From an uncultured Acidobacteriota bacterium (lineage in GTDB: Bacteria; Acidobacteriota; Thermoanaerobaculia; Multivoradales; UBA5704): a stretch of DNA of 64,000 bases. The notes beneath the pieces are model-generated. The model did no database searches. It had not been told where the DNA came from and saw only the letters and a program-made list of their open reading frames with translations. Below, in pieces: positions 1 to 14,771 of the stretch. Location: assembly GCA_963770895.1 (NCBI GenBank), contig CAVYRF010000001.1:416001-480000 (forward strand), read 5' to 3'. The position numbers and the translations under genes were made by a program. The number at the start of each line of letters is the position of its first letter. Within the stretch, counting starts at the first letter, position 1.

Positions 1-547
1 CGTCGCGCACCAGCTCCCGTATCACCTCACGGCGCAAACGGCCGCGATGGTGCGGGCGCAGCAGGCGTACCGCCAGCAGGTCGTCGGGCTCCACGGTGGC
101 ATCGTCCAGCAGGTGCAGCGCACCGACGCCGGCAGCGGCCAGCTCGCACGCGGCCACCGCTCCCCACGGCTCGAGCCCGACCAGTAAGACCCGGGCCTGG
201 CGCAGGCCCTCGCCGGCCTCGGCGGGGGCGAGGCCGACGCCCTGGAAGAATCGCTCCTGGGCTGCGCCGGCGGCTTCGGGCTCACCGGCGGTATCCGCCG
301 CCGATTCGACGAGCCCCTTCTGGCGCAGCAGCTCGAGAAGGCCGTGCACGCTTGCCGGCGAGTAGCCGGGCAAGGCTCCGGCCACCTCGTCGAGATCGCG
401 GCTGCCGTCGAGCAGCGGCAGCAGCTGGCTGACAAAGACGCTGATATCGGGGCCGTCGAGCTGGAAGCTCCCGAGGTCCGACCGAAGGACCACCGCCTGC
501 GCCATGGGCGTGATGCTGGCGGACGGGCTCAGGCGTACCTTGCTCAT
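1..547 (-). CDS. TOMM-type RiPP maturase, N-terminal part: RRE (leader-binding) + ThiF/E1-like domain (cyclodehydratase scaffold, possibly YcaO-fused); partial, runs off window edge
   Basis: Not in the ORF track. Manual translation from ATG 547 gives MSKVRLSPSASITPMAQAVVLRSDLGSFQLDGPDISVFVSQLLPLLDGSRDLDEVAGALPGYSPASVHGLLELLRQKGLVE (RRE winged-helix pattern LLPLLDGSR...L..L...GLVE), then LRQARVLLVGLEPWGAVAACELAAAGVGALHLLDDATVEPDDL (ThiF/E1 Rossmann start). Open to position 1. Confidence 0.85.
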   Translation of the reverse strand, partial: MSKVRLSPSASITPMAQAVVLRSDLGSFQLDGPDISVFVSQLLPLLDGSRDLDEVAGALPGYSPASVHGLLELLRQKGLVESAADTAGEPEAAGAAQERFFQGVGLAPAEAGEGLRQARVLLVGLEPWGAVAACELAAAGVGALHLLDDATVEPDDLLAVRLLRPHHRGRLRREVIRELVRD

Positions 548-618
548 AGGCGGGCTCACATCCAGAATGCATTCCCCGGCCGGCGTGACCGGTAGGCTTC
601 CTGGACCGTTTCGCGGCG

Positions 619-652
619 GGCCCGCGCGCCGATCCAGGGTTGCGCGCGGGCC
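619..652. promoter_or_regulatory. GC-rich stem-loop between RiPP precursor and maturase gene
   Basis: Perfect 11-bp inverted repeat GGCCCGCGCGC (619-629) / GCGCGCGGGCC (642-652) with a 12-nt loop. No U-tract on the minus strand, so more likely an mRNA-stabilising/attenuating hairpin than a full terminator. Confidence 0.6.
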
Positions 653-682
653 GTGTTTCTCACCGTGAGGATACTTCGGACC

Positions 683-1135
683 TCACTTGGAGGACGAGCA
701 TTGAGCGCACGGGGTGCACTGGGCGCACGGCGTACATGGGGTGCACTGGGCGGCGTACTGCGTACATGGGGTGCACTGGGCGGTGCACTGCGTACATGGA
801 GTGCACTGGGTGGTGCACGGCGTACAAGCGGTGCACGGCGCGCACAGGGGGGTCGCATGGGCCTGGTAACAGGGCTGGCAATTGACGCAGTTCTGACACA
901 GCGCTTGGATGCACGAATTGCAGAGAATGCAGGCGGGAGGAGTGCATGTGAGGCACGGTGGGTGACACGGCCAGCACGCCGCTACCCAACACGGGTGCGC
1001 GACCACGCAGGGCTTCTGGGTCGCCTGCGTCAACGCGTCGACCTTATGTTGCAGGCCGTTGACCGCAGCGTGCAGCTCGGTCAGGACAACATGAAGATCC
1101 TTGGGAGGGTTTGGATCGTGGGGCTCATCGGCCAT
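683..1135 (-). CDS. Cys-rich RiPP precursor peptide (150 aa; Cys-x-x repeats)
   Basis: ATG 1135 is preceded by AGGAG (TTCAGGAGAAATCGA-ATG). A 42-aa Cys-free leader is followed by 108 aa containing 28 Cys, mostly spaced CxxC (CTP, CTQ, CAQ). It lies directly upstream of the RRE-ThiF gene. Confidence 0.8.
   Translation of the reverse strand: MADEPHDPNPPKDLHVVLTELHAAVNGLQHKVDALTQATQKPCVVAHPCWVAACWPCHPPCLTCTPPACILCNSCIQALCQNCVNCQPCYQAHATPLCAPCTACTPCTTQCTPCTQCTAQCTPCTQYAAQCTPCTPCAQCTPCAQCSSSK
711..846. repeat. Imperfect 30-bp coding tandem repeat inside the precursor core
   Basis: Units at 731-760 (cgtacatggggtgcactgggcggcgtactg), 761-790 (cgtacatggggtgcactgggcggtgcactg) and 791-820 (cgtacatggagtgcactgggtggtgcacgg), with degenerate flanks. 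Encodes about QCTAQCTPCT. Confidence 0.85.
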
Positions 1136-1282
1136 TCGATTTCTCCTGAACCACGGGTAAGTGGACGTCACACCAGCCACGCCGGCCGGGAAATGGGCAG
1201 CCTTGGGACAGTCGTATCGTGGGCTTCGGCTGTTGCCGCACAGCCGGCCCAAGGCGTTTAAAGAGCTGAAGGTAACAATCGG

Positions 1283-1311
1283 ATTATAGCAAAAGCAGCG
1301 ATACCGCTCAA
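1283..1311 (-). promoter_or_regulatory. Sigma70-type promoter for the RiPP precursor operon
   Basis: Minus strand reads TTGAGC (1311-1306) - 17 nt - TATAAT (1288-1283), with an extended -10 TGn immediately before (TTTGC-TATAAT), in an AT-rich patch of otherwise very GC-rich DNA. Confidence 0.75.
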
Positions 1312-1369: not shown

Positions 1370-2836
1370 CTACGGCTTGGGCGGCAGCGATTGCGATGCG
1401 GCCTGGATGGCGCGCTCGAGCAGCTCGTCGCGGCCGGCGGCGATCCCCTGGCGGGTGGGAGCGACGGGGATCGTGGGGAGGATGCCGACGCCGTGGTGGC
1501 GCGAGCCGTCCTGTTTGTCGACCCGCATGCCCGTCCAATGGATGCGATAGCCACCGGGCAGGGTAAAGGGGTTCACGTCGCCGTTGGTGCCGGCGGTCGG
1601 GCCGCCGACGATCTCTCCCAGGTGGTAGTGCTCGACGATCCCCATGCAGCTCTCGGCGTAGCTGATGGCGCGGCCGTCGGTCACGAACACCAGGCGCGCC
1701 GTGAGCCGGACCGGGAGTGGCTCCAAGGTCCAGGCGCTTTCCCAATAGGTCACCCCCTGGCGGTCGGGGCGGATGGTGACCGGTATGCGCCAGCGCGCCG
1801 AGTGGAAGGTCTCGCCCACCAGGTGCTGCAGGAAGAGCGGCGAGAGCGTCGGATAGCCGCGAAAGTCGATCACGATGGCGCGCGCCTTCGCCAGGCGGTC
1901 GAGCGCCGCGGTGAAGTCCTGGTCCTGGATTCGCTGCACGTCGAGATACATCACGCCCGGAGCCACCTCGGCGATCGGGGCCGGGCGTCGCTCCGCGATC
2001 GCGCCGGGACCCTGGATCGGCAGCGAACGGTCGACGGTCACCGTCGCCGTCTCGCCGGTCAGGTGAGCGACCGACAGCCGCACGCTCGCCGACGGCCCCC
2101 TGAGCAGCCGCTCCACGGAGACGTACCGCAGAAACTGCGGCGTGGCAGCCGACGTCAGCTCCTGCTCGGCGGCAATCACCTCGGCTGCCGGACGGCCGTC
2201 GATCGCCGTCACGACGTCGCCGGGCTGGATGCCGGGGGCGTGCGCCGCATCGACCGCGGTCACCACCAGCTGCCCTTCGACCCAGCTCCAAGAGAGCGGC
2301 AGATGGAACGTCGCGGAGGTGGCGGAGATCAGGGTGACCAGGCCGTGGCCGTCGTGCAGCGCCGCGACCATCCGCCGCAAGGTATCGCGGAAAGCTACCG
2401 CGTCGCGATCAGTCGCGGCGCCACGCAAAGCCCGCCGCAGCTCCGCCGGCCAATCCGTCCCCGTCACGTCGAAATAGGGGTAGAAGTGCTGGAAGACATT
2501 CCAGGCCAGGATTACGTCGGCAAGCCGCGTCGCGCGATCGTCGCCCGAAGGGAAGAATCCGTCCGGCTTCTCGGGTGCCGGCGCCAGCACCCCGGCCGGC
2601 ACCTCCGGCAGCGTCCCCTTTTCATCGGCATAGAGCGTCAGCGGCACCGCCGCCGACACGCCGCCGCCCAGATCGACAGTCACCGGCTTGCCAGGCGGCG
2701 GCCAGTCGAGCGCCAGAGGCTTGCCATCCGGGTAGGTCTGCGGCCCCGTCACGTCGACGCGCTCGCTCAGGTAGAGCCCGCGCGCCACGTCCATGCCGGC
2801 ACCGACCCCGAAGTGGCGCCATCCCAGGACGCGCAC
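1370..2836 (-). CDS. S41-family (tail-specific/PDZ) peptidase, probably lacking its N-terminus
   Basis: WNVFQHFYPYF, LHDGHG, PDZ-like GIQPGDVVTAIDG, IVIDFRGYP, catalytic region AISYAES, GGPTAGTNG, HHGVGILP. No signal peptide or SD at GTG 2836. Confidence 0.8.
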   Translation of the reverse strand: MRVLGWRHFGVGAGMDVARGLYLSERVDVTGPQTYPDGKPLALDWPPPGKPVTVDLGGGVSAAVPLTLYADEKGTLPEVPAGVLAPAPEKPDGFFPSGDDRATRLADVILAWNVFQHFYPYFDVTGTDWPAELRRALRGAATDRDAVAFRDTLRRMVAALHDGHGLVTLISATSATFHLPLSWSWVEGQLVVTAVDAAHAPGIQPGDVVTAIDGRPAAEVIAAEQELTSAATPQFLRYVSVERLLRGPSASVRLSVAHLTGETATVTVDRSLPIQGPGAIAERRPAPIAEVAPGVMYLDVQRIQDQDFTAALDRLAKARAIVIDFRGYPTLSPLFLQHLVGETFHSARWRIPVTIRPDRQGVTYWESAWTLEPLPVRLTARLVFVTDGRAISYAESCMGIVEHYHLGEIVGGPTAGTNGDVNPFTLPGGYRIHWTGMRVDKQDGSRHHGVGILPTIPVAPTRQGIAAGRDELLERAIQAASQSLPPKP

Positions 2837-3003
2837 CTTTCCCGGTGGCGCGGCCAGCAGCTCCGCAGGGATGGGTCTGGGCAGGTTCGCAGAGGTTGCG
2901 CCGGGGGTGGGGCCGATGGCGGGCCGGCTCCGCTTCGGGCTCCGCTGCCGCGGACGCGAGGCCGCCCCGCCGCCGACGCTATCTGAGCGGCGGGACCGAG
3001 CGC

Positions 3004-4134
3004 ATGGAGCAATACCTGTCGGCGGCGCGGGAGCATGTCTCCCGGCGCTGCGCGGCGGATCGCGAGTGGCTCTACCGCAAACCCTTCGACGCCAATGCCG
3101 GCAATGCTGCGTTCTTCGACGAGATGTACTCGGTGATGAACCTGCTGCGGGCGATGGCCATCACGCCCGGCGGCAGGGTGCTCGAAGTCGGCAGCGGCCC
3201 CGGATGGGTGACCGAGATCCTGCTGGCGTTGGGTTATGAGGTCCATGCCCTCGAACCCAGCGAGGAGATGATCGCGATCGCCGCCGAGCGCGTCGCGGCC
3301 GCCCGCGGTCATTTCCATCTCGGCGACAGCCCGCCCGTCACCTTCCACGCCGAACCGCTCGAAACCTGCTCGCTTCCCAGCGAAGCCTATGACGCGGTGC
3401 TCTTCCATGCCTCGCTGCACCATGTCGTGGACGAAGATCGCGGCCTGGCCCAGTGTTTCCGCCTGCTGCGGCCGGGCGGCGTCCTGGGAGCGAGCGAAGG
3501 GGCCTGGATCCCCGGCGACCGCAAGCTGGAAGCCCAGCTCGACCAGGAGATGCAGCGCTTCGGCACACTCGAAAACCCCTACACCGTGGAATACCTCGAC
3601 TTCCTGCTCCGCCGCCACGGCTTCGTGGACGTTCGGCGCTACTTTGCCGTCAACGGCCTGCTGCCAGAGGCGATGGGGCGCCGCCCGGTGGCCGCGGTCG
3701 CCACCTCCCGTCCCTGGGACGGCAACAACCTGACGGCCCGCAAGCCCTCGCTCCATCGCGCCACCACCCTCGACGGCGGCACCGCCCGAACGCGCGCCCG
3801 GATCACCGTATTGGCGACCACCCTCGATCGACCCACCGGCGCCGCCCACCTCCAGGTGCGCCTGGCCAACCGCGGCGACACGGCCTGGCTGGCAAACGCT
3901 CCGCGCGTGGGTTGGGTGGCCGTCGCCCTGCGCCAGGGCGAACCGGGCAGCCCCGATCTCGTCGAGGCGGGCGGCCGCCACCCCCTGCCGCGCACCCTGG
4001 CCCCCGGCGAACAGATCGTCCTCGACCTCGACTTCCGCCTGCCTCCCGCACGCGCCGCCGGCCCCTGGCTTCTCGATCTCGTGAACGAAGGCATGTTCTG
4101 GTTCTCCGAGCGCGGCAGCCCGCCGTCCCCGTGA
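3004..4134 (+). CDS. Class I SAM-dependent methyltransferase with C-terminal Ig-like beta domain
   Basis: Motif I VLEVGSGPGW, YDAVLFHASLHH, LLRPGGVL. C-terminal VRLANRGDTAW...LPRTLAPGEQ...LDLVNEGMFWF. Start taken at ATG 3004; the ORF-track extension to 2575 overlaps the peptidase. Confidence 0.85.
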   Translation: MEQYLSAAREHVSRRCAADREWLYRKPFDANAGNAAFFDEMYSVMNLLRAMAITPGGRVLEVGSGPGWVTEILLALGYEVHALEPSEEMIAIAAERVAAARGHFHLGDSPPVTFHAEPLETCSLPSEAYDAVLFHASLHHVVDEDRGLAQCFRLLRPGGVLGASEGAWIPGDRKLEAQLDQEMQRFGTLENPYTVEYLDFLLRRHGFVDVRRYFAVNGLLPEAMGRRPVAAVATSRPWDGNNLTARKPSLHRATTLDGGTARTRARITVLATTLDRPTGAAHLQVRLANRGDTAWLANAPRVGWVAVALRQGEPGSPDLVEAGGRHPLPRTLAPGEQIVLDLDFRLPPARAAGPWLLDLVNEGMFWFSERGSPPSP

Positions 4135-4170
4135 TCTTCAACCCGCCGCCCTGAAGCAACCGCGCGCGCG

Positions 4171-6048
4171 TCAGCTACAGGGCAACGCCGCTGTGTCCTG
4201 CACCGGTGCCGCGGCGGTGCCGTCCGTGTTGGCGTAGGACTTGTGAGCGCCGGTCTGCAGGTCGGTCACCACGGCGGTGAAGCCGACGTTGGTGCCGGCG
4301 GCGTAGAACAGCCAGTATTTCTGGTTGACGCTGCAGCCGTCGATGACCTTGATCAGCATCTCCGGGTTGTCGGCGCTGAAGAACCAGAAGAGACCGCCCT
4401 GCGCAACGCCCAGGCTGTTGAGGGCGATCGCGTGGCCGTTGCCCGCGCTGCCGCCGCCCTCCGCGGTCTTGTAGCTGGCCGTGATCTGAAAACGGCCATT
4501 GATGCACAGAGTGGTGCCGTTGGCGGTACAGGTGGCGGCCTCGGGCAAGGCATCGATCGCGGTCGGCGGGGGGCTCTGCTCGGCGCTCGCGGGGCGCCGG
4601 TCGCCCGCTTCGAGGTGGGCGCTGGTCGCCGCGGCGACGTCGCCAGCGGCGGCGTCTGGAGCAGCGGGCGCGGCGTCTCCCTGGGCGTCGCACGTGAAGG
4701 CGGCGGTGTCCTGTTGCGGCGGCGCGGCGGTCTCGTCGGTGTTCTGGTAGGTCTTGGTGCGAGGAGTCTTGGTGTCCTTGACGCTGACGGTGAAGCCGAC
4801 GTTGGTGGTCGCCGAGTAGAACAGCCAGAAATGTTGGTTGACCGAGCAGCCGTTGATGACCTTGATCAGCATCTCCGGGTTGTCGGCGTCAAAGAACCAG
4901 AACAGGCCACCTTCGGTGACGCCCAGGCTGGCGAGCGGGATCGCCTGGCCGTTGCCGGCGAGCCCGCCGCTCTGCGCCGTCTTGTAGGCGACGCCGATCT
5001 GCCAGCGCTTGTCGCCCGGCTTGTCGTCGATGCACAGGGTTGTCGCCGTCGCCACGCAAGCCGCGTTGTGGGGCAGTTCCACACGGCCCACCTTGTTGCC
5101 GCTCACCTCGGTGAACCACATGTTGCCGTCGGGCCCGGCGGTGATGCCGCCCGGACTGGAGTGCGCCGTGGGCACCGGATACTCCGTGACCTTGCCGGCG
5201 GTGGTCACCATGCCGATCTGATTGGCCTCGAACTCGGTGAACCAGAGGTTGCCATCGGGTCCGGCGGTGATGAAAACGCTACCCGCCGTCGAGGTCGGCA
5301 GCGGAAACTCGGTGATCACGCCCGCCGGGGTGATGCGCCCTAGGTTGTTGCCGGAGAGCTCGGTGAACCAGACATTGCCGTCGGGGCCGAGGGTGATCCC
5401 GGTTGGCGCGGGTTGGGCGCCGGCGTCGGGTAGCGCGAACTCGTGGAAGACGCCGGCCGTCGTGAGCCGCCCGACCTTGCCGGTGTTCTGCTCGGTGAAC
5501 CAGAGGTTGCCGTCGGCTCCCACCGTGATGCCGGCGGGTCCGGCGCCGCCGGTCGGCACGGCGAACTCCTTGCACGCGCCGGCGGTCGTGATGCGTCCGA
5601 TCTTGCTACCGTTGAGCTCGGTGAACCAGAGGTTGCCGTCGGGGCCGGCCACGATGTCCGCCGGTCCGGCCTGAGAGGTGGGTACGTCGAAGAGCGTCAC
5701 GGCGCCGGCGGTCGTGATGCGTCCGATCTGATTGCCTTCGTAGGCCGCGAACCACAGATTGCCGTCGGGCCCCGCCGTGATGCCGCCCGAAACCGGGCTC
5801 GACAGCGCGCTCGCGACCGGAAACTGATTGACCACCGTGCCGGCGGTGGTGATGCGGCCGACGGCGTTGCCCTCGAGCTCGGTGAACCAGAGGTCGCCGT
5901 CCGGACCGGCGGCGATGCCGGCCGGCGACACGCCGCTCGTCGGTACCGGAAACTCGTTGATCGTGATGGCGCCGGCGGGCGCCGCCGCGAGGGTCGCCAG
6001 GATGACTGCGAACACCGCCGCACGGATGTCGTCGCTGAAGGTTGCCAT
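4171..6048 (-). CDS. Secreted Vgb-like 7-bladed beta-propeller with two tandem C-terminal Cys-containing domains
   Basis: Signal peptide (AAVFAVILATLAAAPAGA) and seven GPDGNLWFTE-type repeats. Two copies of C..TTLCI...GGLFWFF.ADNPEMLIKVI.GCSVNQ..WLFY...TNVGFT...D...P.QDTAA..C. GGAG upstream of ATG 6048. Confidence 0.85.
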   Translation of the reverse strand: MATFSDDIRAAVFAVILATLAAAPAGAITINEFPVPTSGVSPAGIAAGPDGDLWFTELEGNAVGRITTAGTVVNQFPVASALSSPVSGGITAGPDGNLWFAAYEGNQIGRITTAGAVTLFDVPTSQAGPADIVAGPDGNLWFTELNGSKIGRITTAGACKEFAVPTGGAGPAGITVGADGNLWFTEQNTGKVGRLTTAGVFHEFALPDAGAQPAPTGITLGPDGNVWFTELSGNNLGRITPAGVITEFPLPTSTAGSVFITAGPDGNLWFTEFEANQIGMVTTAGKVTEYPVPTAHSSPGGITAGPDGNMWFTEVSGNKVGRVELPHNAACVATATTLCIDDKPGDKRWQIGVAYKTAQSGGLAGNGQAIPLASLGVTEGGLFWFFDADNPEMLIKVINGCSVNQHFWLFYSATTNVGFTVSVKDTKTPRTKTYQNTDETAAPPQQDTAAFTCDAQGDAAPAAPDAAAGDVAAATSAHLEAGDRRPASAEQSPPPTAIDALPEAATCTANGTTLCINGRFQITASYKTAEGGGSAGNGHAIALNSLGVAQGGLFWFFSADNPEMLIKVIDGCSVNQKYWLFYAAGTNVGFTAVVTDLQTGAHKSYANTDGTAAAPVQDTAALPCS

Positions 6049-6319
6049 AGCGCTCGTCTCCAAGGTCCTCGTGGAGGGGAATACCTGGTTGGCGACCTCG
6101 AGAGTTCGCCGCGGTTGACGCGAAGCAACGTCAAGGTAACACACGGTGCCCGGCCCGGCGTGGCGAGGCAAAGGGTGCGCCTGCCGGCTGCGGTGATGGC
6201 GGCGAGCTGGCCGGTTTTGAAGCGGCTTCAGGACCGGAGGCTCCGCCAGCAGACGCTGCCCGCCAGCTGGTGGCCAGGTGGGCGTCGGGATCGGTGGGCT
6301 CTCGGCCTACGCTTGCGCT

Positions 6320-9300
6320 TCAGGGGCTCGCGCCGGCAGCTGGCGCCGGCGCCTGGGCCGCCTGGGCCGCGGAGATCTTGATGGTGGAGAAGGGCGAGAG
6401 GGTGAGCGTGCCGGGGTCGGCGAAGAACCAGCGCACCACCTGGCCGGCGAGGTTCGACATGCCGGCCGGGCGCGCGGCGCTGGCACGCAGGCGGGCCAGG
6501 CGCTCGACGGGATGGTCGACCGGCACGGCGTTGCCGGCGTCGTCGACGGCGAAGCCGCCGACCGCCTCGGCGAGGTCGGCGAGCGCGGTGCTGTCGGCGG
6601 AGGAGGTCTCGGGCTGGTCCCAGACGCGCACGGTGCCGTCGTTGTCGACGGTCATGACGCGCGAGCCGTCGGGGCTGAAGGTGGCTCTGGTCACCCAGCC
6701 CTGGGGGGGCGCGTGCCAGAGCGGTTCGGCGAGCTGGTGGCAGGAATCGACGTCCCAGACCTGGGCGAAGCCGTCGGCCGAGCGGGCGAGGAATCGCTGG
6801 CCGTCGGCGCTGAGCTCGGCGACGAAAGGGGTTTCGGCGACCGGGGGATAGACCTGGGAGGCGAGTTGAATGCGGCAGAGGAGCCGCCCGTTCGCGATCT
6901 CCCGCACCTCGACCTCGCCACGCCCGAGCGTGGCGATCATTCGCGTCGCGTCCTGGCTGAAGCTCAGGGTCTGGAACCCGCTGTCGAACGGCACGGAGCT
7001 GCCCGTCGGCTTGCCGCTTGGCGCGAAGAACCTGAGCACATGGTCGGCAGCGAGGATGGCGATGAGCCTGGCATGGGGGCTCCAGAGTCCCACGATTGGG
7101 TTCGCCAGCTCGACGTGGCCGACCATGCGGCCCGTTTGCGTTGCCCACACCTGGAGTCCGGACTTCGCCCAGGTGAGGACAAAGCGGCCCTCGTCGTCGA
7201 TCTCGGGTCTTTTGTCGTCAAGTTGGCGTGTCGCCGGGATCTCTTTGCCGCTGCGCGCATCCCAGCTTTGGATCTGCCAACCGACCGCCCACCAGGGCCC
7301 CAGCGCCAGGAGCCGCTCGCCGTCCGCGCTCACCTGAGCCGAGGACAGCTCTCGCACCTGAGGCACCTTGATCACCGCGCTGAGGCTGCGACCCGTCCTG
7401 GCATCCCAGGCCTGCAGGGTGTTCCGCTGCGGGTCGGCCGCGACCACGGCCAGCCGTCCATCCGCCAGCAGGTTGGCCGACAGCACCGGCAGCCCGCCAG
7501 GAGACACGACGCTGCTTTCCCCGGTCGCGAGGTCCCAGAGCCGCACGGTTCCATCCTGGGTGACGGCGATCGCCTCGGCGCCCCGGCTGCCGAACAGGGC
7601 GTAGCGGACCGGCTGCGCCAGGAGCTGCGGGCGGGCGTATCGGTCGGGGCGCATGTCCCAGATCTCGGCCGTTCCGTCATCCGCGGCGCTCACCGCCTTG
7701 CGTCCGTCGCGGCTCCAGCCGACGACGTTGACGGGACCCTTGTGCCGCAGGGCTTGCATCGCAGTTTCGCCGGTGCGGGCATCCCACAGCCACGCGGCGG
7801 AGTCGCGCGAGCCGGTCAGCACCCATCGGCCGTCCGGGCTGAAGTGCGCCGTGGACACCAGCCTGTCGTGCGGGATCGGCCGCGGCGGCGACCCGGGGGC
7901 GTCGAGGTTCCACAAACGCACGACGCGGTCGGCGCAGACGGTGAGCAGCGTGTGGTCGTCGGGACTGAACTCGGCCCAGGTGACAGGCGCCTTGTGATCG
8001 TGAGTGGAAACCACTCGCAGCGTCGTGAGGTCCGCGATCCGCACCGTACCCTGGGCGCCGACGGTGAGCAGGCGGTCGCCCCGGTGGTTGAAGGCCACCA
8101 GGGTCGCATCCTTGCCGAGAGACGAGAGCTCCCCCCGGGCGGCGCCGGCGCGCCGATCGAACAGGAGCGGTGCTTCGGCGGTCGGCAGGACGACGAGCAG
8201 CGGGGGCTCGCCGATCACGGTATTGCCGGTGGCGGCGAACCGCTTGCCGTCCGGGCTCAAGGCCGCAACATGGTAGGGAGGGGTCAGACGCTCCTGGGTT
8301 CGAGCATCCCATAGCGTGGTGCCTTCGTACGAGCTGATCATGAGCCGGTCGCCGCGCGAGCTCCACGCCACGCCGTCCACGGGAGGGTAGACCTTCATCT
8401 CGCGACCGAGGGGGGCGCCGCTCCTGCCGTCCCAGATCCGTGCCACGCCATCCTGGCAGCCGGTGAGCACCCGGTCGCCGTCGGGGCTGAACGCGGCCGA
8501 GGTCGCCGCGCCGCCATGGCGCATCACGGCCAGGGGGGCGCCGTCGCGCACCCGCCAGAGTCGCGCGGTGCCGTCAAGCGAGGCCGTCAGCAGGCGCTCC
8601 CCGTCCGGGCTGAGCTCGGCGGCGGTGACCGCCCGGTCGTGCCGCACCCTCAGCACCGGCAGCGGCCAGCTCTCGTGCAGCAGGATGCCGAGGGCGCGGT
8701 GGCGGGCGTCGTCGCTGTCCTCTGGGCGCGACCTCATGATCGAGGCGAGGTAGGCCAGAGCCTGCGCGGCGCGGCCTTTTTCGATCAGGTTTCCCGCCGA
8801 ATCGAAGAGCGCCCGCTCGGCGCGCCGCTGGGCGCTATCCGCGGCTTTCTCAGCCGCCTGGCTGTGCCGCCACAGGACGGCGGCGGCGATCGCCAAAACG
8901 ACGGTGGCGACCAGCACCCAGCCGAGCACCAGCGCCAGCTTGCGGCTGCGCGCGAGCAGGCGGCGCGTCTCGCGCTCGCGCTCGCCGGCCTGCTGCGCCA
9001 GGCGGTCGGCCTCGCGCGCGTCTTCTTCCGCCTGGCGGCGGGCCTCGCGCTGGCGGCGCAGCTCGCGGCTCTCGCCGATGACCTCGGTCAGCACGTCGTG
9101 GGTGAGCTCGACCCAGTCGACGCCGTGGCGCTCCTCGATGCGCAGCAGGCGCCGGTCGCGCAGGGTGAGCAGGGCGGCGGCCGTGACGCCCGGCACGGCG
9201 ACGGCGTTGTCCCACGCGACGCTGTCGCGGTAGCCGGAGCGGGTGAGCAGACGGTCCTCGATGAAGGTGCGCATCTCGGGGGTGAGCCCGGCCAGGCTGG

Positions 9301-10429
9301 CCTCGTAGAAGCGCGTCAGGATCTCCTTCCACGAACCGGAGAGCAGGTCGAAGGTGATGGTGGCCTCGCCGCGGTCCCGCCGCCGGTTGTTGAGCTCGCG
9401 GCAGACCAGGCTGAGCAGGGTGGGGTCGACCGTGAGCTCGGCGAGCGGCGGCGGGCCGTCCGCGCCGGCCTGCCGCCCGGCAAGGCCCTGGCGTTCCGCC
9501 GCCGCGCCACCGGCGCCGGCCGTCTCCTCATGCTCCGCCGCCGCGGCGCCCGCCCCGTCCGCACCGCCCGCCTGGGCCCGGCCGGCGCCCGAGACGAAGC
9601 GCACGACCTTCTCCGCCACCTCCGGCGCGATGAGGTGGCCGCCGGCGCAGGTCACGACGCGCAGCGCCGCTTCGCCGGTCATGTGCCGCAGCGCCAGCCG
9701 GCTGGCTCCGAGCGAGCGCATGCGGGCGCGCAGGGTGTCGAGGTCGGCCAGGAAGTCCTGGCGCAGGCAGACCAGGATCTTGTAGTCGTGCCGTTCGGGC
9801 GAGAAGTCCGCGGCGAGCGCCGGCGCGGCGTCGAGGCGCGCCTTGACCGCCGCGGGCGGGCGGCCCTCGACCAGGTCGGCGAGCTCGGCGAGGAACGCCT
9901 CGCGGCCGGGGTCCTTTCTGCCCAGGGTGAAGATCTCCTCGAACTGGTCGAAGACCAGCAGCGGCACGACGATGCGGTTGGCCGCGCTCCAGAAGTTGGC
10001 GCCCGCGCGGTGGAGCGACTCCCAGAGGGTCTCGCCGGGCGGCAACGGCGGCGCCTCGACCCGCGCGTCCGCCGCCGCGGCAAGGATCGCGTCCCGCACC
10101 TGGTCGACCAGCCCCCGCTCGGCGGGGCCGCGCTCGCCCGCCCAGGCCAGCCGGATGGCGACCGGCAGCACCTCCTGCCGGCGCAGCCGCGGGAAGAGGC
10201 CGGCCTGGAGGAGCGAGGTCTTGCCCAGCCCGGAACGGCCGTAGACCACGGTGGCACGGGTCGATTCCCGCATCACCGTGCGGCGCAGCTCCTCGATCTC
10301 GTCTTCGCGGCCGAAGAAGAAGGCCTGGTCCTGCTCGCGGAACGACGGCAGCCCCGGCCAGGGATTGTCGCGATCGACCTGCCCGCCCTGGGCGGCAAGG
10401 GACGCCGGCGCCGGCGCGGCCTCCGTCAC
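6320..10429 (-). CDS. nSTAND1-type P-loop NTPase - coiled coil - TM helix - WD40 repeats
   Basis: NPWPGLPSF...FFFGREDEI, Walker A GRSGLGKTS, Walker B LLVFDQFEEIF, ELTHDVL, hydrophobic LALVLGWVLVATVVLAIAAAVLW, many FSPDG...TAS.DGTARLW repeats. GTG 10429 overlaps the upstream TGA (GTGA). Confidence 0.88.
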   Translation of the reverse strand: MTEAAPAPASLAAQGGQVDRDNPWPGLPSFREQDQAFFFGREDEIEELRRTVMRESTRATVVYGRSGLGKTSLLQAGLFPRLRRQEVLPVAIRLAWAGERGPAERGLVDQVRDAILAAAADARVEAPPLPPGETLWESLHRAGANFWSAANRIVVPLLVFDQFEEIFTLGRKDPGREAFLAELADLVEGRPPAAVKARLDAAPALAADFSPERHDYKILVCLRQDFLADLDTLRARMRSLGASRLALRHMTGEAALRVVTCAGGHLIAPEVAEKVVRFVSGAGRAQAGGADGAGAAAAEHEETAGAGGAAAERQGLAGRQAGADGPPPLAELTVDPTLLSLVCRELNNRRRDRGEATITFDLLSGSWKEILTRFYEASLAGLTPEMRTFIEDRLLTRSGYRDSVAWDNAVAVPGVTAAALLTLRDRRLLRIEERHGVDWVELTHDVLTEVIGESRELRRQREARRQAEEDAREADRLAQQAGERERETRRLLARSRKLALVLGWVLVATVVLAIAAAVLWRHSQAAEKAADSAQRRAERALFDSAGNLIEKGRAAQALAYLASIMRSRPEDSDDARHRALGILLHESWPLPVLRVRHDRAVTAAELSPDGERLLTASLDGTARLWRVRDGAPLAVMRHGGAATSAAFSPDGDRVLTGCQDGVARIWDGRSGAPLGREMKVYPPVDGVAWSSRGDRLMISSYEGTTLWDARTQERLTPPYHVAALSPDGKRFAATGNTVIGEPPLLVVLPTAEAPLLFDRRAGAARGELSSLGKDATLVAFNHRGDRLLTVGAQGTVRIADLTTLRVVSTHDHKAPVTWAEFSPDDHTLLTVCADRVVRLWNLDAPGSPPRPIPHDRLVSTAHFSPDGRWVLTGSRDSAAWLWDARTGETAMQALRHKGPVNVVGWSRDGRKAVSAADDGTAEIWDMRPDRYARPQLLAQPVRYALFGSRGAEAIAVTQDGTVRLWDLATGESSVVSPGGLPVLSANLLADGRLAVVAADPQRNTLQAWDARTGRSLSAVIKVPQVRELSSAQVSADGERLLALGPWWAVGWQIQSWDARSGKEIPATRQLDDKRPEIDDEGRFVLTWAKSGLQVWATQTGRMVGHVELANPIVGLWSPHARLIAILAADHVLRFFAPSGKPTGSSVPFDSGFQTLSFSQDATRMIATLGRGEVEVREIANGRLLCRIQLASQVYPPVAETPFVAELSADGQRFLARSADGFAQVWDVDSCHQLAEPLWHAPPQGWVTRATFSPDGSRVMTVDNDGTVRVWDQPETSSADSTALADLAEAVGGFAVDDAGNAVPVDHPVERLARLRASAARPAGMSNLAGQVVRWFFADPGTLTLSPFSTIKISAAQAAQAPAPAAGASP

Positions 10430-11823
10430 GCCGAGGCGCCCTTCCTCTCCTGCTGCTGGTACTTCCGGTAGAGATCCCGCAGCCGCTCGACGAAGGATGG
10501 GTCGGCCTGCCCGGCAGGCAGGCGCGTCCAGTGGAGGGCGCGGAACAGCTCGGGCAGCGCCGCCTCGCTCGCCGAGACGTCGTCGACCGCCACCGGCAGG
10601 ATGAACGGCCGGTTGGGCGGGAAGAGCGGCGCCAGGTCGACCGCCTCGTTCCATTCGCGGCGGAAGAAGCGCGGGGCGTCGGTCAGGGTGTGGCGCGAGA
10701 GGACCGGCACGAACAGGCTGGAACCCTGGATGGCGCGCCGGATCTTGAGGCGGTAGTCGTCGCCCCCTTCGAGCGCCTGCTTGTCGAACCAGACGTCCAG
10801 GTTGCGGGACGCGAGGGCGTCGTGGATGGCGCGCGCCGCCTCCAGGTCCTCGCTCGCATAGGAGAGGAAGATGGCGCCGGGCTGCATCTCGGCGCGGCCC
10901 GGGCGCGGCGCCCCGGCGGCGGGGTCGCCGGCGGCGGAGGCGCCGGGCGCGGGCGCGGGATGCGCTTCGCCCCAGCGCCGCGCCAGCTCTTCGACGAACA
11001 GCGCGGCGCCGCCGGGGAAGACCTGGATGCCGGGACCGAAGTGGTGCAGGAAGAGCGCCAGGCCTTCTTCGCCGACTCCCGCTCGGTCGGCGAACACGTC
11101 GGTCTTGCCGCGCCGCGCCGACAGGCGCGCGCCGGTCCCGATGCGCAGGAAAAAGCGCGTCAGCCAGTCGGGGAAGTTGGTGCCGAGCACCAGCAGCGGC
11201 CGCTCGGCCAGCTCGTCGAGGACGCGCGGCCGCGTGTCCTCGGTCTGCAGGGAGTGGACGAACTCCAGCCGGTCCTCCTCGGTCAGCGCATATTCGCTCG
11301 ACAGCGCCGAGAGCTTGCCGAAAAGATGAAGGACGGCGGCGTCGCGCTCGCCGATGTCGCCGGGATCCACCGCCCCCGGAGAATACGAGAAGACCTCGGT
11401 GCGCGGCTCGCCGTCGAACCGCACCTGGTCGAGCGCCGCCTTGAGCAGCGAATCGAAGGTGGTCGAGATGAACAGCCGCAGCCGGGGAATGCCGGCGAGC
11501 AGCAGCAGCGGGCGCGGCAGCGGCAGCTCCTGCGGCGGGGGCATCGCCGACTTGAGCGCGGAGTAGAGGTACTGGACGTTGCCGCCGCGCGCCAGAAACC
11601 GGTAGGCCACCGCGTCGAGCTCGGCGCCGGCCGGATAGGCGTCGACCTCGACCTTGAGCCGCGCCGCCAGGCGCTCGGCGAGCAGCCGGTTGAGCGGCAC
11701 GTCACCGCCCGCTAGCGGCAGCGTGAGCAGGCCCTGGCCGACCACGGTCACCACGCGCCCCTCTTCGATGTACTCCAGGAGCTGTTCCCAGAAGAGCTCG
11801 AGGTCCGCCGCGGAAGCGCTCAT
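10426..11823 (-). CDS. SIR2-like domain + TIR domain protein
   Basis: N-terminal SIR2_2-like pattern (VVTVVGQGL, FISTTFDSLL, VLHLFGKL, LLVLGTNFPDW). C-terminal TIR (IFLSYASED, VWFDK, GGDDY..KI..AI, LFVPVLS, FFRREW). Start ATG 11823. Confidence 0.85.
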   Translation of the reverse strand: MSASAADLELFWEQLLEYIEEGRVVTVVGQGLLTLPLAGGDVPLNRLLAERLAARLKVEVDAYPAGAELDAVAYRFLARGGNVQYLYSALKSAMPPPQELPLPRPLLLLAGIPRLRLFISTTFDSLLKAALDQVRFDGEPRTEVFSYSPGAVDPGDIGERDAAVLHLFGKLSALSSEYALTEEDRLEFVHSLQTEDTRPRVLDELAERPLLVLGTNFPDWLTRFFLRIGTGARLSARRGKTDVFADRAGVGEEGLALFLHHFGPGIQVFPGGAALFVEELARRWGEAHPAPAPGASAAGDPAAGAPRPGRAEMQPGAIFLSYASEDLEAARAIHDALASRNLDVWFDKQALEGGDDYRLKIRRAIQGSSLFVPVLSRHTLTDAPRFFRREWNEAVDLAPLFPPNRPFILPVAVDDVSASEAALPELFRALHWTRLPAGQADPSFVERLRDLYRKYQQQERKGASA

Positions 11824-11935
11824 GGAGTGTGCGACAAAAATATGCCGGGCGCGGCGTTCCGTCAATCCAGGGCACGCGCTATGCTGCCCGCCATCCGTCC
11901 AACCCGTTTCCTCGACCTGACCTGCAGGAGGGAGC

Positions 11936-12898
11936 ATGCCGCACGTCACTTTCGTCCATGGCATCGCCAACAAGCCGCCCGCCGACCAGCTGCTCGACGT
12001 CTGGCGCCGCGGCCTCGCCGCGAGCGACGGCATCGACCTGGGCGCCCAGGGGTTCACCTCCTCGATGGTGTATTGGGCCGACGTGATGTACGCCAGCCCG
12101 CTCGCCGAGGCCGCGGTCGAGCGCGCCACCAACGAGGCCGCGAGCGAGGCGCTGGAGCCCGAGCCGGTGGATCTCGGCCTCGACGAGATGGACGCCGGGG
12201 AACGGTCCTGGGTCGCCGGGCTCGCCGCCAAGCTGGCCGTGCCGCTCGCCGTCGACGACGTGGTGGCCGCCGCCGCCCCGGGGCCGCTGCGCGACACCCT
12301 GGAGCGCATCCCGCTGCCGTGGCCGATCAAGGAGCGCATCATGAAAAGGTTCCTGCGCGACGTCCACCACTACCTCTTCGACGTCGACTACAGCCCGCGG
12401 CCGGGGGACACCTACCGGGTGCAGGAGGTGATCCGCGGGCGCATGATCGCGGCGCTGGCGGAGGGCGCCTCGCAACCGCCGCCGCATGTCGTGGTCAGCC
12501 ACAGCATGGGGACGGTGATCGCCTACGACTGCCTGATGCGGGTCGCCGCCGCCCCGGCCGTCGACGGCCTGATGACCCTCGGCAGCCCGCTCGGTCTCGA
12601 CGAGATCCAGGACAAGCTGAAGCCCGAATGGAGCCGCGACGACGGCTTTCCGCTCGCCAAGCTGCGCGGCCGCTGGGTCAACGTCTTCGACCGCCTCGAC
12701 CCGGTGGCCGGTTTCGATCCCGAGATCGCCAACGACTATCGCCGGGCGGGCCGCGCGGCGGTGGAAGACCTCAACGAGCAGAACCACGGCGCCTGGCGGC
12801 ACGACGTCAGCAAGTACCTGGCGGGGCCCGGGCTGCGCGGCAAGCTGGGCGAGCTGCTCGGGCTCACCGGTGCCGCGGCATCCGCGGCGGAAAGCTGA
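11936..12898 (+). CDS. Alpha/beta hydrolase
   Basis: FVHGI oxyanion motif, nucleophile elbow SHSMG, TLGSPLG, WVNVFDRLDPV (Asp), WRHDVSKYL (His). SD GGAGGGAG upstream. Confidence 0.85.
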   Translation: MPHVTFVHGIANKPPADQLLDVWRRGLAASDGIDLGAQGFTSSMVYWADVMYASPLAEAAVERATNEAASEALEPEPVDLGLDEMDAGERSWVAGLAAKLAVPLAVDDVVAAAAPGPLRDTLERIPLPWPIKERIMKRFLRDVHHYLFDVDYSPRPGDTYRVQEVIRGRMIAALAEGASQPPPHVVVSHSMGTVIAYDCLMRVAAAPAVDGLMTLGSPLGLDEIQDKLKPEWSRDDGFPLAKLRGRWVNVFDRLDPVAGFDPEIANDYRRAGRAAVEDLNEQNHGAWRHDVSKYLAGPGLRGKLGELLGLTGAAASAAES

Positions 12899-12909
12899 GG
12901 CGCGGCGCC

Positions 12910-14616
12910 ATGAGCTGGAACGAGGAGGACTACCTGGCGCGGCTCGCCGCGGCCATCGAGCGCTTTGACCGCGCCGGCGCCACCCGCCTGGTCGACGAGC
13001 TGGCCGCGGCGCTCGACCAGGGCGAGGCGCCGTCGCCCGCGGCGGCCCGCACGACGCTGCAGTCGCTGCGCCGCAAGTGCCTTTTCGACCTGATGGAGCG
13101 CGCCGCGGTGGCGCTGCGCCAGGCGGGACGGGACGAGGCGCAGATCCGCCGCCAGCATGCCCAGGCGCTGATCGACCAGGGGAAGCTGACGGCGGCGATC
13201 GACCTGCTCGAAGGGCTCGTCGCCCGCACCGCCGGGGACCCCGCCGAAAACGGCGAGGCGCGCGGCCTGCTCGGCCGCGCCTGCAAGCAGCTGTACATTG
13301 GCGCGGTCGGCGGTGCCGCCGGCGGCAGCGAGCCCGCCCGGTCCGGCGCCGGCGCGCGGCGCGCGGCGCAGCGGCACCTGGCGCGCGCCGTCGAGGCCTA
13401 CCGCACGGGCTACGTCGCCGACCCCGCGGGCCGCCTCTGGCACGGCATCAATACCGTGGCGCTGGTCTGCCGGGCGGGCCGCGACGGCGTGGAACTCGCG
13501 GCCGCCCCCGACCCCATGGCGCTGGCGCGCGAGATCCTGGCGCGGATCGGCGGCCCGCGCCAGGCGGTGGCGGCGTGGGACGTGGCGACCGCGGCCGAGG
13601 CCTGCGTCGCCCTCGGCCGGCCCGAGGAGGCCCTGCTGTGGATCGGCGAATACGTGCAGCGGCCGGAGGCCGACGCCTTCGAGCTCGCGAGCACCCTGCG
13701 CCAGCTGACCGAGGTCTGGCAGCTGAACCTGGCGACGCCGCCGGGCTCGCTGCTGCTGCCGCTCCTGCAATCGAACCTCCTGGTGCGCAAGGGGGGCCGG
13801 GTGGAGCTCGCGCCCGGAGAGCTGGGCCAGGCCATCGACCGCAGCCGCGAGGCCGCCGGCGCGGCCGAGCAGGCGACCGGCGAGCAGCTCGAGAAGATCC
13901 TCGGCCGCGACGGGGTGGTGACGCTCAAGTGGTACCAGACCGGCCTCGAGCGCTGCCGCACGGTGGCGCAGGTGCGCACCCGGCTCGACGAAGGCGTCGG
14001 CACCGGCTTCCTGGTGCGCGGCGGCGACTTCGCGGCCGGCCTTGCCGGGCAGATCCTGCTGCTGACCAACGCCCACGTGGTGAGCGCCGATCCCGCGGTG
14101 CAGAAAGAGCACGGGTCGCTCGATCCCGGCGACGTCCAGATCGTCTTCGAGGCGCTCCCCGGCACCGCCGGGCAGAGCTACCGCGCCGCCCGCCTGCTCT
14201 GGACCTCCCCTCCCGAGGAGCTCGACGCCACCCTCCTCGCGCTCGACCCGCCGCTGCCCGCCTCGGAGTGCTTCCCGCTCGCCCGCCGCCTGCCGGTCGC
14301 CGACGGCCAGCAGAAGGTCTACGTCATCGGCCATCCCGGCGGCCGGTCGCTGTCGATCTCCTTGCACGACAACCTGTTGCTCGACCACGACGGCGAGCGT
14401 CTGATCCACTACCGCGCGCCGACCGAGGGGGGCAGCTCCGGCAGCCCGGTGTTCAACCAGCAATGGGACCTGCTCGGCCTCCATCACGCGGGCGGCTTCG
14501 CCGTGGCCCGGCTGCGGGGCCAGACCGGCACCTACGCCGCCAACGAGGGAATCTGGATCCAGCGCATCATCCAGGAGCTCCAGAAGGCGGGGCTGCAGGA
14601 AATCTGCGCTCCTTAG
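12910..14616 (+). CDS. TPR (MAP3K TRAF-binding/DUF4071-like) + trypsin-like serine protease
   Basis: Helical repeats EARGLLGRACKQLY, WHGINTVAL, WDVATAAEACVALG. Protease triad motifs GTGFLV, LLTNAHVV, LDATLL, TEGGSSGSPVFNQQWDLLGLHHAG. Starts 11 nt after the hydrolase stop. Confidence 0.87.
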   Translation: MSWNEEDYLARLAAAIERFDRAGATRLVDELAAALDQGEAPSPAAARTTLQSLRRKCLFDLMERAAVALRQAGRDEAQIRRQHAQALIDQGKLTAAIDLLEGLVARTAGDPAENGEARGLLGRACKQLYIGAVGGAAGGSEPARSGAGARRAAQRHLARAVEAYRTGYVADPAGRLWHGINTVALVCRAGRDGVELAAAPDPMALAREILARIGGPRQAVAAWDVATAAEACVALGRPEEALLWIGEYVQRPEADAFELASTLRQLTEVWQLNLATPPGSLLLPLLQSNLLVRKGGRVELAPGELGQAIDRSREAAGAAEQATGEQLEKILGRDGVVTLKWYQTGLERCRTVAQVRTRLDEGVGTGFLVRGGDFAAGLAGQILLLTNAHVVSADPAVQKEHGSLDPGDVQIVFEALPGTAGQSYRAARLLWTSPPEELDATLLALDPPLPASECFPLARRLPVADGQQKVYVIGHPGGRSLSISLHDNLLLDHDGERLIHYRAPTEGGSSGSPVFNQQWDLLGLHHAGGFAVARLRGQTGTYAANEGIWIQRIIQELQKAGLQEICAP

Positions 14617-14704
14617 CCGCCGGTGAGGCATTTCCCGCGGCAGGTTGCGGCGGCGGCCGGGAGCTCCCGAGTTTGGAGGCGCAGAACACCCAGGCGAGAT
14701 CTTA

Positions 14705-14732
14705 TTTGAAGAAATTATCAACGCTGTATAGT
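14705..14732 (+). promoter_or_regulatory. Possible promoter upstream of exporter gene
   Basis: AT-rich patch with TTGAAG (14706-14711) and TATAGT (14727-14732). Spacing of 15-16 nt is suboptimal. Confidence 0.4.
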
Positions 14733-14771
14733 GTGTAAAGGTAAGCCCTTGCTCGCTGTGAGGGGTTCAGG

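Follow-up and report, generated by a model that had tools for sequence, protein, structure and literature searches.

The described system nearest to the present locus in its periodicity is that of heterocycloanthracin/sonorensin from Bacillus (TIGR03601), which Haft 2009 (PMC2674419) outlines as a conserved leader followed by a long, low-complexity core of Cys-Xaa-Xaa units, a core that varies by insertion and deletion of repeat units, and maturation by ThiF-like, YcaO, and SagB-type proteins, all of which recur here. In thiazole/oxazole-modified microcin (TOMM) systems as outlined by the same source, a partner domain binds the leader, a YcaO protein cyclodehydrates Cys, Ser, and Thr residues onto the preceding carbonyl, and SagB oxidizes the resulting azolines to azoles (PMC2674419). 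A different fate of the thiazoline is described in PMC7465668 for Irp3, which delivers hydride from NADPH to the C=N of the thiazoline before protonation. Here, we investigated a 64,000-nucleotide stretch from an uncultured Acidobacteriota genome (G000:C1:416001-480000; hereafter, the window), with genes beyond its left end being read from the adjoining genome DNA. It is likely that a four-gene operon for a linear azol(in)e (TOMM) peptide, i.e., a ribosomally synthesized and posttranslationally modified peptide (RiPP), has its first gene and the 5' part of its second gene at the left end of the window, and that the fourth gene encodes a reductase making some thiazolidines. Taken by themselves, the parts of this reading carry different weights: that the peptide is a substrate of the YcaO/SagB pair we consider highly probable, and that the reductase makes thiazolidines on this peptide we propose tentatively.

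The precursor gene (window 683..1135, minus strand) is an ATG-started open reading frame (ORF) encoding 150 residues plus a stop codon; its product contains 28 Cys, has known homologs, and matches no Pfam or NCBIfam model. Residues 1-42, encoded by 1010..1135, comprise a leader with the motif PKDL-x3-LTELH-x-AV-x2-L-x2-K-x-D, and residues 43-150, encoded by 686..1009, comprise a 108-residue core, which begins with the first Cys (residue 43) and holds all 28 Cys, mostly as C-x-x-C, together with 12 Cys-Thr dyads. Successive Cys are spaced by exactly three residues in 18 of 27 cases, a count that was reached by none of 100,000 shuffles of the core (maximum, 13). Moreover, the core contains no Cys-Cys dyad, which was true of merely 5 of the 100,000 shuffles. 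Its composition is similarly skewed, with 15 Pro, 15 Thr, and 4 Ser, a single Lys or Arg, and neither Gly, Asp, nor Glu. The core coding sequence includes a 30-bp tandem DNA repeat (711..836, no strand assigned; 4.3 copies, 86% matches, score 168), each unit of which corresponds to 10 residues of the CTPCTQCTAQ type.

Upstream of the precursor gene lie (i) a sigma-70-like promoter, TTGAGC-17-TATAAT with a TG element (1283..1311, minus strand and hence read from 1311 to 1283), which is a 10/12 consensus match only and the single promoter-like site found, against a shuffle mean of 0.3, and (ii) a Shine-Dalgarno sequence read from the DNA, AGGAGA (1142..1147, minus strand), 6 nt ahead of the ATG; GGAGA likewise precedes the precursor ATG in the related loci L007, L008, and L009. 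Downstream, the 135-nt spacer between the precursor and cyclodehydratase genes contains an 11-bp GC-rich hairpin (~619..652, minus strand), and the folding of the whole spacer has a z score of -2.5. No intrinsic terminator was found, and we do not count the hairpin as one because it lacks a U-tail or T-run; a role as a conserved attenuator was also rejected, as the spacers of relatives measure ~40 nt. The promoter, the Shine-Dalgarno sequence, the 150-residue peptide with its 108-residue Cys-rich C-terminal part, and the hairpin had all been described in an earlier sequence-only reading of the first 1,311 nt, and each of them was recovered at these positions. Six sequencing runs contain part of this stretch, all of which are from soil metagenomes or "organism A," with no RNA run among them.

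To describe the precursor family, we relied on an alignment of ten precursors (A2), which shows a strongly constrained leader with the consensus M-A-D-E ... P-K-D-L-N-I-x-L-T-E-L-H-S-A-V-x-A-L-x-x-K-L-D-K. Among these residues, Met1, Asp3, Pro11, Lys12, Leu14, Thr19, Glu20, Ala24, and Lys31 are invariant in all ten sequences, and Asp13, Asn15, Ile16, Leu21, His22, Ser23, Ala27, Leu28, Asp33, and Lys34 are nearly so. The core, on the other hand, is hypervariable (46-154 residues; 14-40 Cys), with repeat units that change from one precursor to another, e.g., CYHTGPQPLCQP and CVAPCAPPP; it nevertheless retains its Cys periodicity (145 of 255 Cys-to-Cys gaps are of three residues) and a common C-terminal C-T-P-C-A motif. 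Consistent with this, the precursors of L007 and L008 are 63% identical, compared with 89% for their cyclodehydratases. Judged from the alignment, such a constrained leader with a free core is the usual RiPP pattern. The sequence-only reading had taken the core to be Gly-free, which holds for the window precursor and fails for its relatives, whose cores have 0-10 Gly each; it had also regarded the family as undescribed and as distinct from the heterocycloanthracin type, and both views are borne out by our scans, in which none of the ten precursors significantly matched a Pfam or NCBIfam model (the best match being to TIGR04117, with an E value of 0.032 in one member) or TIGR03601, even at E <= 1.

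When 5.8 billion protein clusters were searched by word index, three homologous peptides emerged, all metagenomic; pattern scans added one metagenome contig and three genome loci among ~185,000 species genomes, these loci being from metagenome-assembled genomes of Acidobacteriota/Thermoanaerobaculia; and a full hmmsearch of 1.84 billion representatives gave 19 proteins at E <= 0.001, five of them at E <= 1e-10. Protein-level conservation of the leader extends to at least 14 sequences of different genomic and metagenomic origin. The weaker hmmsearch matches (P0031-P0044) are metagenomic peptides that share the leader, in the form PxDLxVxLTELxxAVKxL, and have shorter cores in which a C-x-E-C-S-C-G-P-C motif encloses C-(R/K)-V-C repeats. 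The same motif also starts the cores of L022, L023, and L024, and at the sequence level the picture looks like that of a wider leader superfamily. Further, a profile of the distant precursors (A5) gave five weak, core-only matches (E 3e-4 to 9e-4) in 390 other genomes of the phylum sample. We left two precursor-profile matches in genome G999 (E 1e-6 and 1e-5) out of the family, as their frames are of low complexity and their 3-kb loci contain no cluster enzymes, and disregarded a second, weak match in the window genome itself (C1:2134609; E 0.07, one stop). An ESM Atlas search yielded nothing usable.

The gene following the precursor encodes a fused cyclodehydratase, whose 5' part occupies window 1..547 (minus strand) and which continues beyond the window to G000:C1:414067. 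We took the ATG at 547 as its start (826 residues) because this Met aligns with the starts of six homologs (M5, invariant in alignment A3), with the GTG at 559 (830 residues) as an alternative. The protein matches Pfam ThiF (63 bits) and YcaO (228.2 bits), and it scores above the cut-offs of both TIGR03604 (235.5 bits; cut-off, 219.25) and TIGR03882, the TOMM leader-binding model (85.3 bits; cut-off, 36.9). Its residues 8-85 (78 residues) form a winged-helix domain that aligns to the whole of PbtF (E 8.5e-7), which we take to be the leader-binding protein of a thiopeptide pathway, and the best relatives of the 830-residue protein among solved structures are the fused cyanobactin heterocyclases LynD (E 1.2e-36), TruD, and MusD. 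The sequence-only reading had seen in 1-547 a RiPP recognition element (RRE) joined to an E1-like domain, as is indeed the case, and had expected an RRE-ThiF protein to partner a YcaO enzyme; the pairing stands, and what does not is the idea of a separate protein, since all three domains are fused in one polypeptide of 826-830 residues. As for sequence motifs, the C-terminal P-x-P-x-P is present in 7/7 of the YcaO proteins, the GEAIERYS region is also kept, and the E1-like domain has four invariant Cys (C269, C272, C359, and C362). Structure prediction was not informative on this protein: an AlphaFold2 model built from a seven-row alignment reached a mean pLDDT of 42.3, too poor for use, and co-folding of the leader (residues 1-48, A2) with the RRE/E1-like part (residues 1-440, A3) gave scores of 0.24 and 0.29 against a mark of 0.32, which counts neither way.

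The third gene (C1:413297-414067, minus strand) encodes a SagB dehydrogenase of 256 residues (TIGR03605, 155.3 bits; cut-off, 78.4). Its start overlaps the stop of the cyclodehydratase gene (TGATG), so that the two are translationally coupled. All seven SagB sequences have the WKYGQRGYRY and RRSxRD motifs. The RRSxRD motif and the Lys-Tyr within WKYGQRGYRY of SagB, together with the P-x-P-x-P, GEAIERYS region, and E1-like Cys of the cyclodehydratase, are the motifs that TOMM chemistry would require, and they are conserved. A YcaO protein and a SagB to the left of the window had been set beforehand as a test of the RiPP assignment, and both were found there.

The fourth gene (C1:412263-413318, minus strand) encodes a thiazolinyl imide reductase of 351 residues, which matches TIGR01761 at 205.9 bits (cut-off, 188.8) over model positions 4-338 of 350, as well as Pfam GFO_IDH_MocA and Irp3-like_C. 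It aligns with Irp3/YbtU (4gmg) over residues 11-345 (E 4.3e-30), and its His108 (the histidine of an EHP motif) and Tyr135 align with His101 and Tyr128 of Irp3. In Irp3, these two residues are the proposed proton donors. His108 is invariant in 8/8 reductases, and Tyr135 is present in 7/7 main-type clusters and replaced by Phe in L025, a cluster of a second type described below. The reductase gene overlaps the SagB gene by 22 nt in the window genome and by 4 nt in L007 and L008. Furthermore, the genome contains one YcaO, one precursor, and one above-cut-off TIGR01761 match. It also contains 113 condensation-domain matches, and the one nearest to the reductase lies 50 kb away (C1:463170), there being no condensation or cyclization domain within 50 kb of the gene. 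We therefore read the TIGR01761 name as one of homology and not of pathway, because the neighbors are YcaO and SagB and no nonribosomal peptide synthetase (NRPS) module is nearby. A tree of 31 reductases places all seven that are linked to clusters in a group of 26, separate from a group holding a JGI-named PchG and the L025 homolog (split support, 83/77); 23 of the sequences in the tree are unlabeled, of which two are identical to cluster reductases and 21 are further sequences without a context label.

Comparison of the loci showed that the order of precursor, fused cyclodehydratase, SagB, and reductase is the same in 7/7 complete loci (that of the window genome, L007, L008, L009, L022, L023, and L024), the eighth (L006) being incomplete because its contig ends inside the cyclodehydratase gene. 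In all eight, the precursor gene lies next to that of the cyclodehydratase in the same orientation; homologous precursors thus do stand beside homologous maturases, a check that the sequence-only reading had proposed, and none was found in a metallothionein-like setting. The enzymes of the other loci are 41-62% identical to those of the window genome, and all of the complete loci belong to Thermoanaerobaculia-type Acidobacteriota, in agreement with the Acidobacterium-like host proposed for the window. The operon as a whole spans ~5 kb on the minus strand, and it is bounded, after the reductase gene, by a CsgG/FlgO-like lipoprotein gene on the opposite strand. None of the ORFs flanking it in the window genome matched the flanks of the other loci; among the latter, L007 has flanks in common with L009, whereas with L008 it has just one weak flanking match (32%).

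The reductase search matched 7 of 401 genomes of the class, of which five carry the main cluster type and two the other type, and none of 400 other genomes of the phylum sample. Strong precursor matches were likewise confined to 5 of the 401 class-sample genomes, including the window genome itself; by family, they occur in 1 of 13 other genomes of the host's own family and in 3 of 96 of family f8 (excluding G999, an f8 genome with weak matches). The cluster is, accordingly, rare and patchy. Four of the precursor-profile matches in the class sample coincided in contig number and coordinates with loci from the pattern scans and the reductase search, which places the window genome in that class, Thermoanaerobaculia.

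The protease and transporter that the sequence-only reading had also expected to the left are not conserved in the cluster. The flanking genes scanned encode a deoxyhypusine synthase, TPR proteins, a kinase, and a sigma factor, with no protease or exporter among them, and beside the operon the loci have no conserved gene for a protease, a transporter, or immunity. Two peptidases of the window genome were tried as leader peptidases and rejected, namely an S41/PDZ peptidase (window 1370-2836, minus strand), encoded directly upstream of the precursor promoter, and an M1 peptidase (C1:407874-410555). Neither was found by tblastn in L006-L009 or L022-L026, and both are therefore treated as mere neighbors; on this sequence comparison, the S41 peptidase is probably unrelated to the cluster.

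A second cluster type occurs in the same class. In L025 (G720:C32:17000-35000, positions 9522-15962), a precursor with a Nif11-type leader (TIGR03798, 39.8 bits) and a single core Cys is accompanied by a fused TOMM cyclodehydratase (TIGR03604, 250.8 bits), a 598-residue protein of no family, and a methyltransferase, with a homolog of the thiazolinyl imide reductase on the opposite strand (165.5 bits, below the cut-off). L026 (G550:C115:18000-36000, positions 2570-7734) has the same enzyme set, the unassigned protein of this cluster type being ~590 residues long. SagB was not detected by tblastn in either locus. As both carry the reductase homolog, the association of reductase with YcaO is not a one-off, and the two loci independently support the view that the reductase family has been recruited to YcaO pathways. 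Pyochelin biosynthesis offers a suggestive parallel, in that its thiazoline is reduced and then N-methylated, and the L025/L026 type may stand as a ribosomal equivalent of the N-methyl-thiazolidine of pyochelin.

The main-type cluster combines (i) a SagD/TOMM-type YcaO, (ii) a fused E1-like/RRE partner, (iii) SagB, and (iv) a neighboring precursor made of a leader and a core rich in Cys, Ser, and Thr; by this content it is a TOMM cluster, whose mature product would carry azol(in)e rings. Gene content, order, coupling, conservation, and the intact motifs were observed directly; from these we infer the chemical steps, the Cys that are modified, leader removal, export, and the role of the product. 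On this basis, the 150-residue precursor would be translated, and its leader (~residues 10-35, probably helical) would be bound by the N-terminal winged-helix RRE of the fused E1-like/YcaO protein. With ATP, the YcaO domain would then turn many Cys of the core (28 in all) into thiazolines, and some of the 15 Thr and 4 Ser may become (methyl)oxazolines; the FMN-dependent SagB would oxidize azolines to azoles, and the Irp3/PchG-type NAD(P)H-dependent reductase would convert a subset of the thiazolines to thiazolidines. The predicted product is a very long, uncharged, and rigid peptide with a heterocycle at about every third residue, in which thiazoles and thiazolidines are mixed and linked thiazole-methyloxazol(in)e pairs could arise at the 12 Cys-Thr dyads. 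The sequence-only reading had spoken of a heavily heterocyclized, poly-thiazole product; the heavy heterocyclization fits the presence of YcaO and SagB, whereas "poly-thiazole" is probably too simple a term because the fourth conserved gene is a thiazolinyl imide reductase. More speculatively still than the thiazolidine step, this could be the first ribosomal family in which YcaO-made thiazolines are reduced to thiazolidines by a recruited siderophore-type reductase, yielding a mixed-ring polymer of at least 100 residues, with rings at every third residue, that is maybe a metal binder, like the thiazolidine-bearing siderophores yersiniabactin and pyochelin, and not a classical exported bacteriocin, with the L025/L026 type as the counterpart of pyochelin's N-methyl-thiazolidine. 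A metal-binding role would fit the absence of linked protease, exporter, and immunity genes.

Several points weigh against this reading. Neither a product, a mass shift, nor a transcript has been seen, and maturation, export, and self-protection have no candidate genes, none being conserved for them beside the operon. Characterized thiazolinyl imide reductases act on carrier-protein-bound bis-thiazolinyl intermediates. The closest mimic of such a substrate in a peptide would be a Cys-Cys dyad, which 5 of the 10 aligned precursors have and the window precursor lacks. In addition, SagB and the reductase compete for the same thiazolines, and their partitioning is not explained; the reductase tree does not cleanly split RiPP-linked from other reductases (the 83/77 split, with 21 sequences lacking context); and, given the 113 condensation-domain matches, a role of the reductase in trans for an NRPS is possible, against which strict synteny and the stop-start overlap argue. 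A rival explanation built on these facts, which we think rather unlikely, is that YcaO and SagB alone make an ordinary poly-thiazole peptide, and that the reductase spares the peptide rings, acting instead in trans on an NRPS-bound thiazoline, reducing another C=N or C=O bond, or serving as a noncatalytic partner. The explanation draws on the NRPS-rich genome, on the NRPS intermediates on which, according to reviews, all characterized members (Irp3 and PchG) work, and on the intact motifs of SagB, which would itself consume the substrate of the reductase; yet it leaves unexplained why the reductase gene should be fourth in 7/7 complete clusters although the flanks of the window genome are not shared, why it should overlap the SagB stop codon as the sole above-cut-off TIGR01761 match in the genome, with the nearest condensation domain not within 50 kb, and why a second YcaO cluster type that lacks SagB should also have a homolog.

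The RiPP assignment of the peptide itself faces two other explanations. One, which we judge very improbable, sees in it an unmodified metal-binding or disulfide-rich peptide of the metallothionein kind that adjoins RiPP enzymes by coincidence: a Cys content of 19% with C-x-x-C spacing is equally typical of metal-binding proteins, and export and protease genes are not linked. Such a coincidence would, however, have to recur in 8/8 loci with the same orientation, beside a cyclodehydratase that has a leader-binding RRE domain and in a genome with one precursor and one YcaO, and the conserved leader with its hypervariable, indel-rich core is a RiPP pattern. The other, to which we attach next to no probability, is that the ORF is a chance open frame through the GC-rich 30-bp tandem repeat. 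That repeat does overlap the core, the host genome is 71% GC with many spurious ORFs overlapping that of the precursor, and the GC content at third codon positions is 0.75 in the precursor, below the 0.88-0.90 of the neighboring genes; the leader, however, is nonrepetitive and is conserved in protein sequence across the at least 14 sequences noted above, and relatives have a Shine-Dalgarno sequence and an ATG at the same place. Going by the sequences, the precursors represent a real, uncharacterized linear azol(in)e peptide family, nearest to heterocycloanthracin in its periodicity and not a member of it.

Among the other genes of the window, two very large ORFs on the plus strand (47026-60593; 2652 and 1870 residues) have condensation-domain matches at 47170 and 50344; with 113 such matches, the host genome is an NRPS-rich "super-producer." On the minus strand, 4171-6171 encodes a 666-residue protein with a propeller of the virginiamycin B lyase family (388 bits), followed by two copies of an unassigned Cys-containing C-terminal module. 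On the same strand, the 1444-residue ORF at 6320-10654 combines a P-loop-like region near its N terminus (GRSGLGKTS) with a transmembrane stretch and numerous WD40-like repeats and looks, by eye, like a STAND-type protein.

As regards the literature, the searchable papers (a set exclusive of subscription papers and supplements) contain no link between the thiazolinyl imide reductase family and YcaO; nor does the searchable literature report a RiPP thiazolidine, and reviews give azoline reduction for NRPS only. In the accessible text of Cox 2015 (PMC4603692), the terms "reductase," "Acidobacter," and "thiazolidine" are absent, and its supplementary precursor tables might list similar peptides. 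The host lineage, Thermoanaerobaculia, is a barely cultivated soil group that was recently flagged for unusual RiPP enzymology in PMC13083261, which describes the tha/the clusters of the same class. These are alike in that Cys-rich RiPP cores gain thiazoles, and they differ in that a flavin oxidoreductase of the GMC family, acting with or without a lanthionine synthetase, makes the thiazole in place of YcaO; their genes are unrelated to those of the present cluster (PMC13083261).

Compared with heterocycloanthracin, the window family shows the Cys-Xaa-Xaa repeat without the composition given for TIGR03601 (Gly-rich or Trp-Ser spacers; Bacillus host). The leaders are not homologous (the TIGR03601 scan above), and the core is rich in Pro, Thr, Gln, and Ala and poor in Gly, unlike the Cys-Gly-Gly core of heterocycloanthracin. 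Also unlike heterocycloanthracin, the precursor always lies beside its enzymes, the hosts are Acidobacteriota, and there is an extra reductase gene. The precursors have 14-40 Cys each, compared with the 13 quoted in PMC2674419 for the heterocycloanthracin-type BA_2677. The layout of leader-binding, E1-like, and YcaO parts is shared with LynD, TruD, and MusD (PDB 4v1t, 4bs9, and 7u58; E 1.2e-36 to 1.1e-27), although the strong match to these proteins is confined to residues 253-788, and the N-terminal domain is nearer to PbtF. To our knowledge, few TOMM substrates match the Cys density of the present precursors (14-40 Cys). Cyanobactin precursors, by comparison, carry short cassettes that are macrocyclized by PatA/PatG-type proteases, which are absent from the window cluster. 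Azole RiPPs with much shorter cores are alike in having an E1-like/RRE partner, YcaO, and SagB, and 4,2-linked bis-azoles similar to theirs could form from the 12 Cys-Thr dyads of the window precursor; their clusters carry exporters, proteases, or immunity genes, unlike the window operon, and no reduced (azolidine) ring is reported for them in the searchable literature. Finally, Irp3 (YbtU) and PchG, the reductases of the yersiniabactin and pyochelin pathways (TIGR01761; PDB 4gmg and 4gmf), resemble the window reductase in full-length homology, in a score above the cut-off, and in the aligned His and Tyr. Heterologous expression of the operon is practical because it comprises only four genes in ~5 kb. 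Whereas Irp3 and PchG act on NRPS carrier-bound bis-thiazolinyl intermediates, azoline reduction being textbook chemistry for nonribosomal siderophores, the window reductase is coupled to SagB in a ribosomal operon, and its conservation there would make it a testable new RiPP tailoring step.

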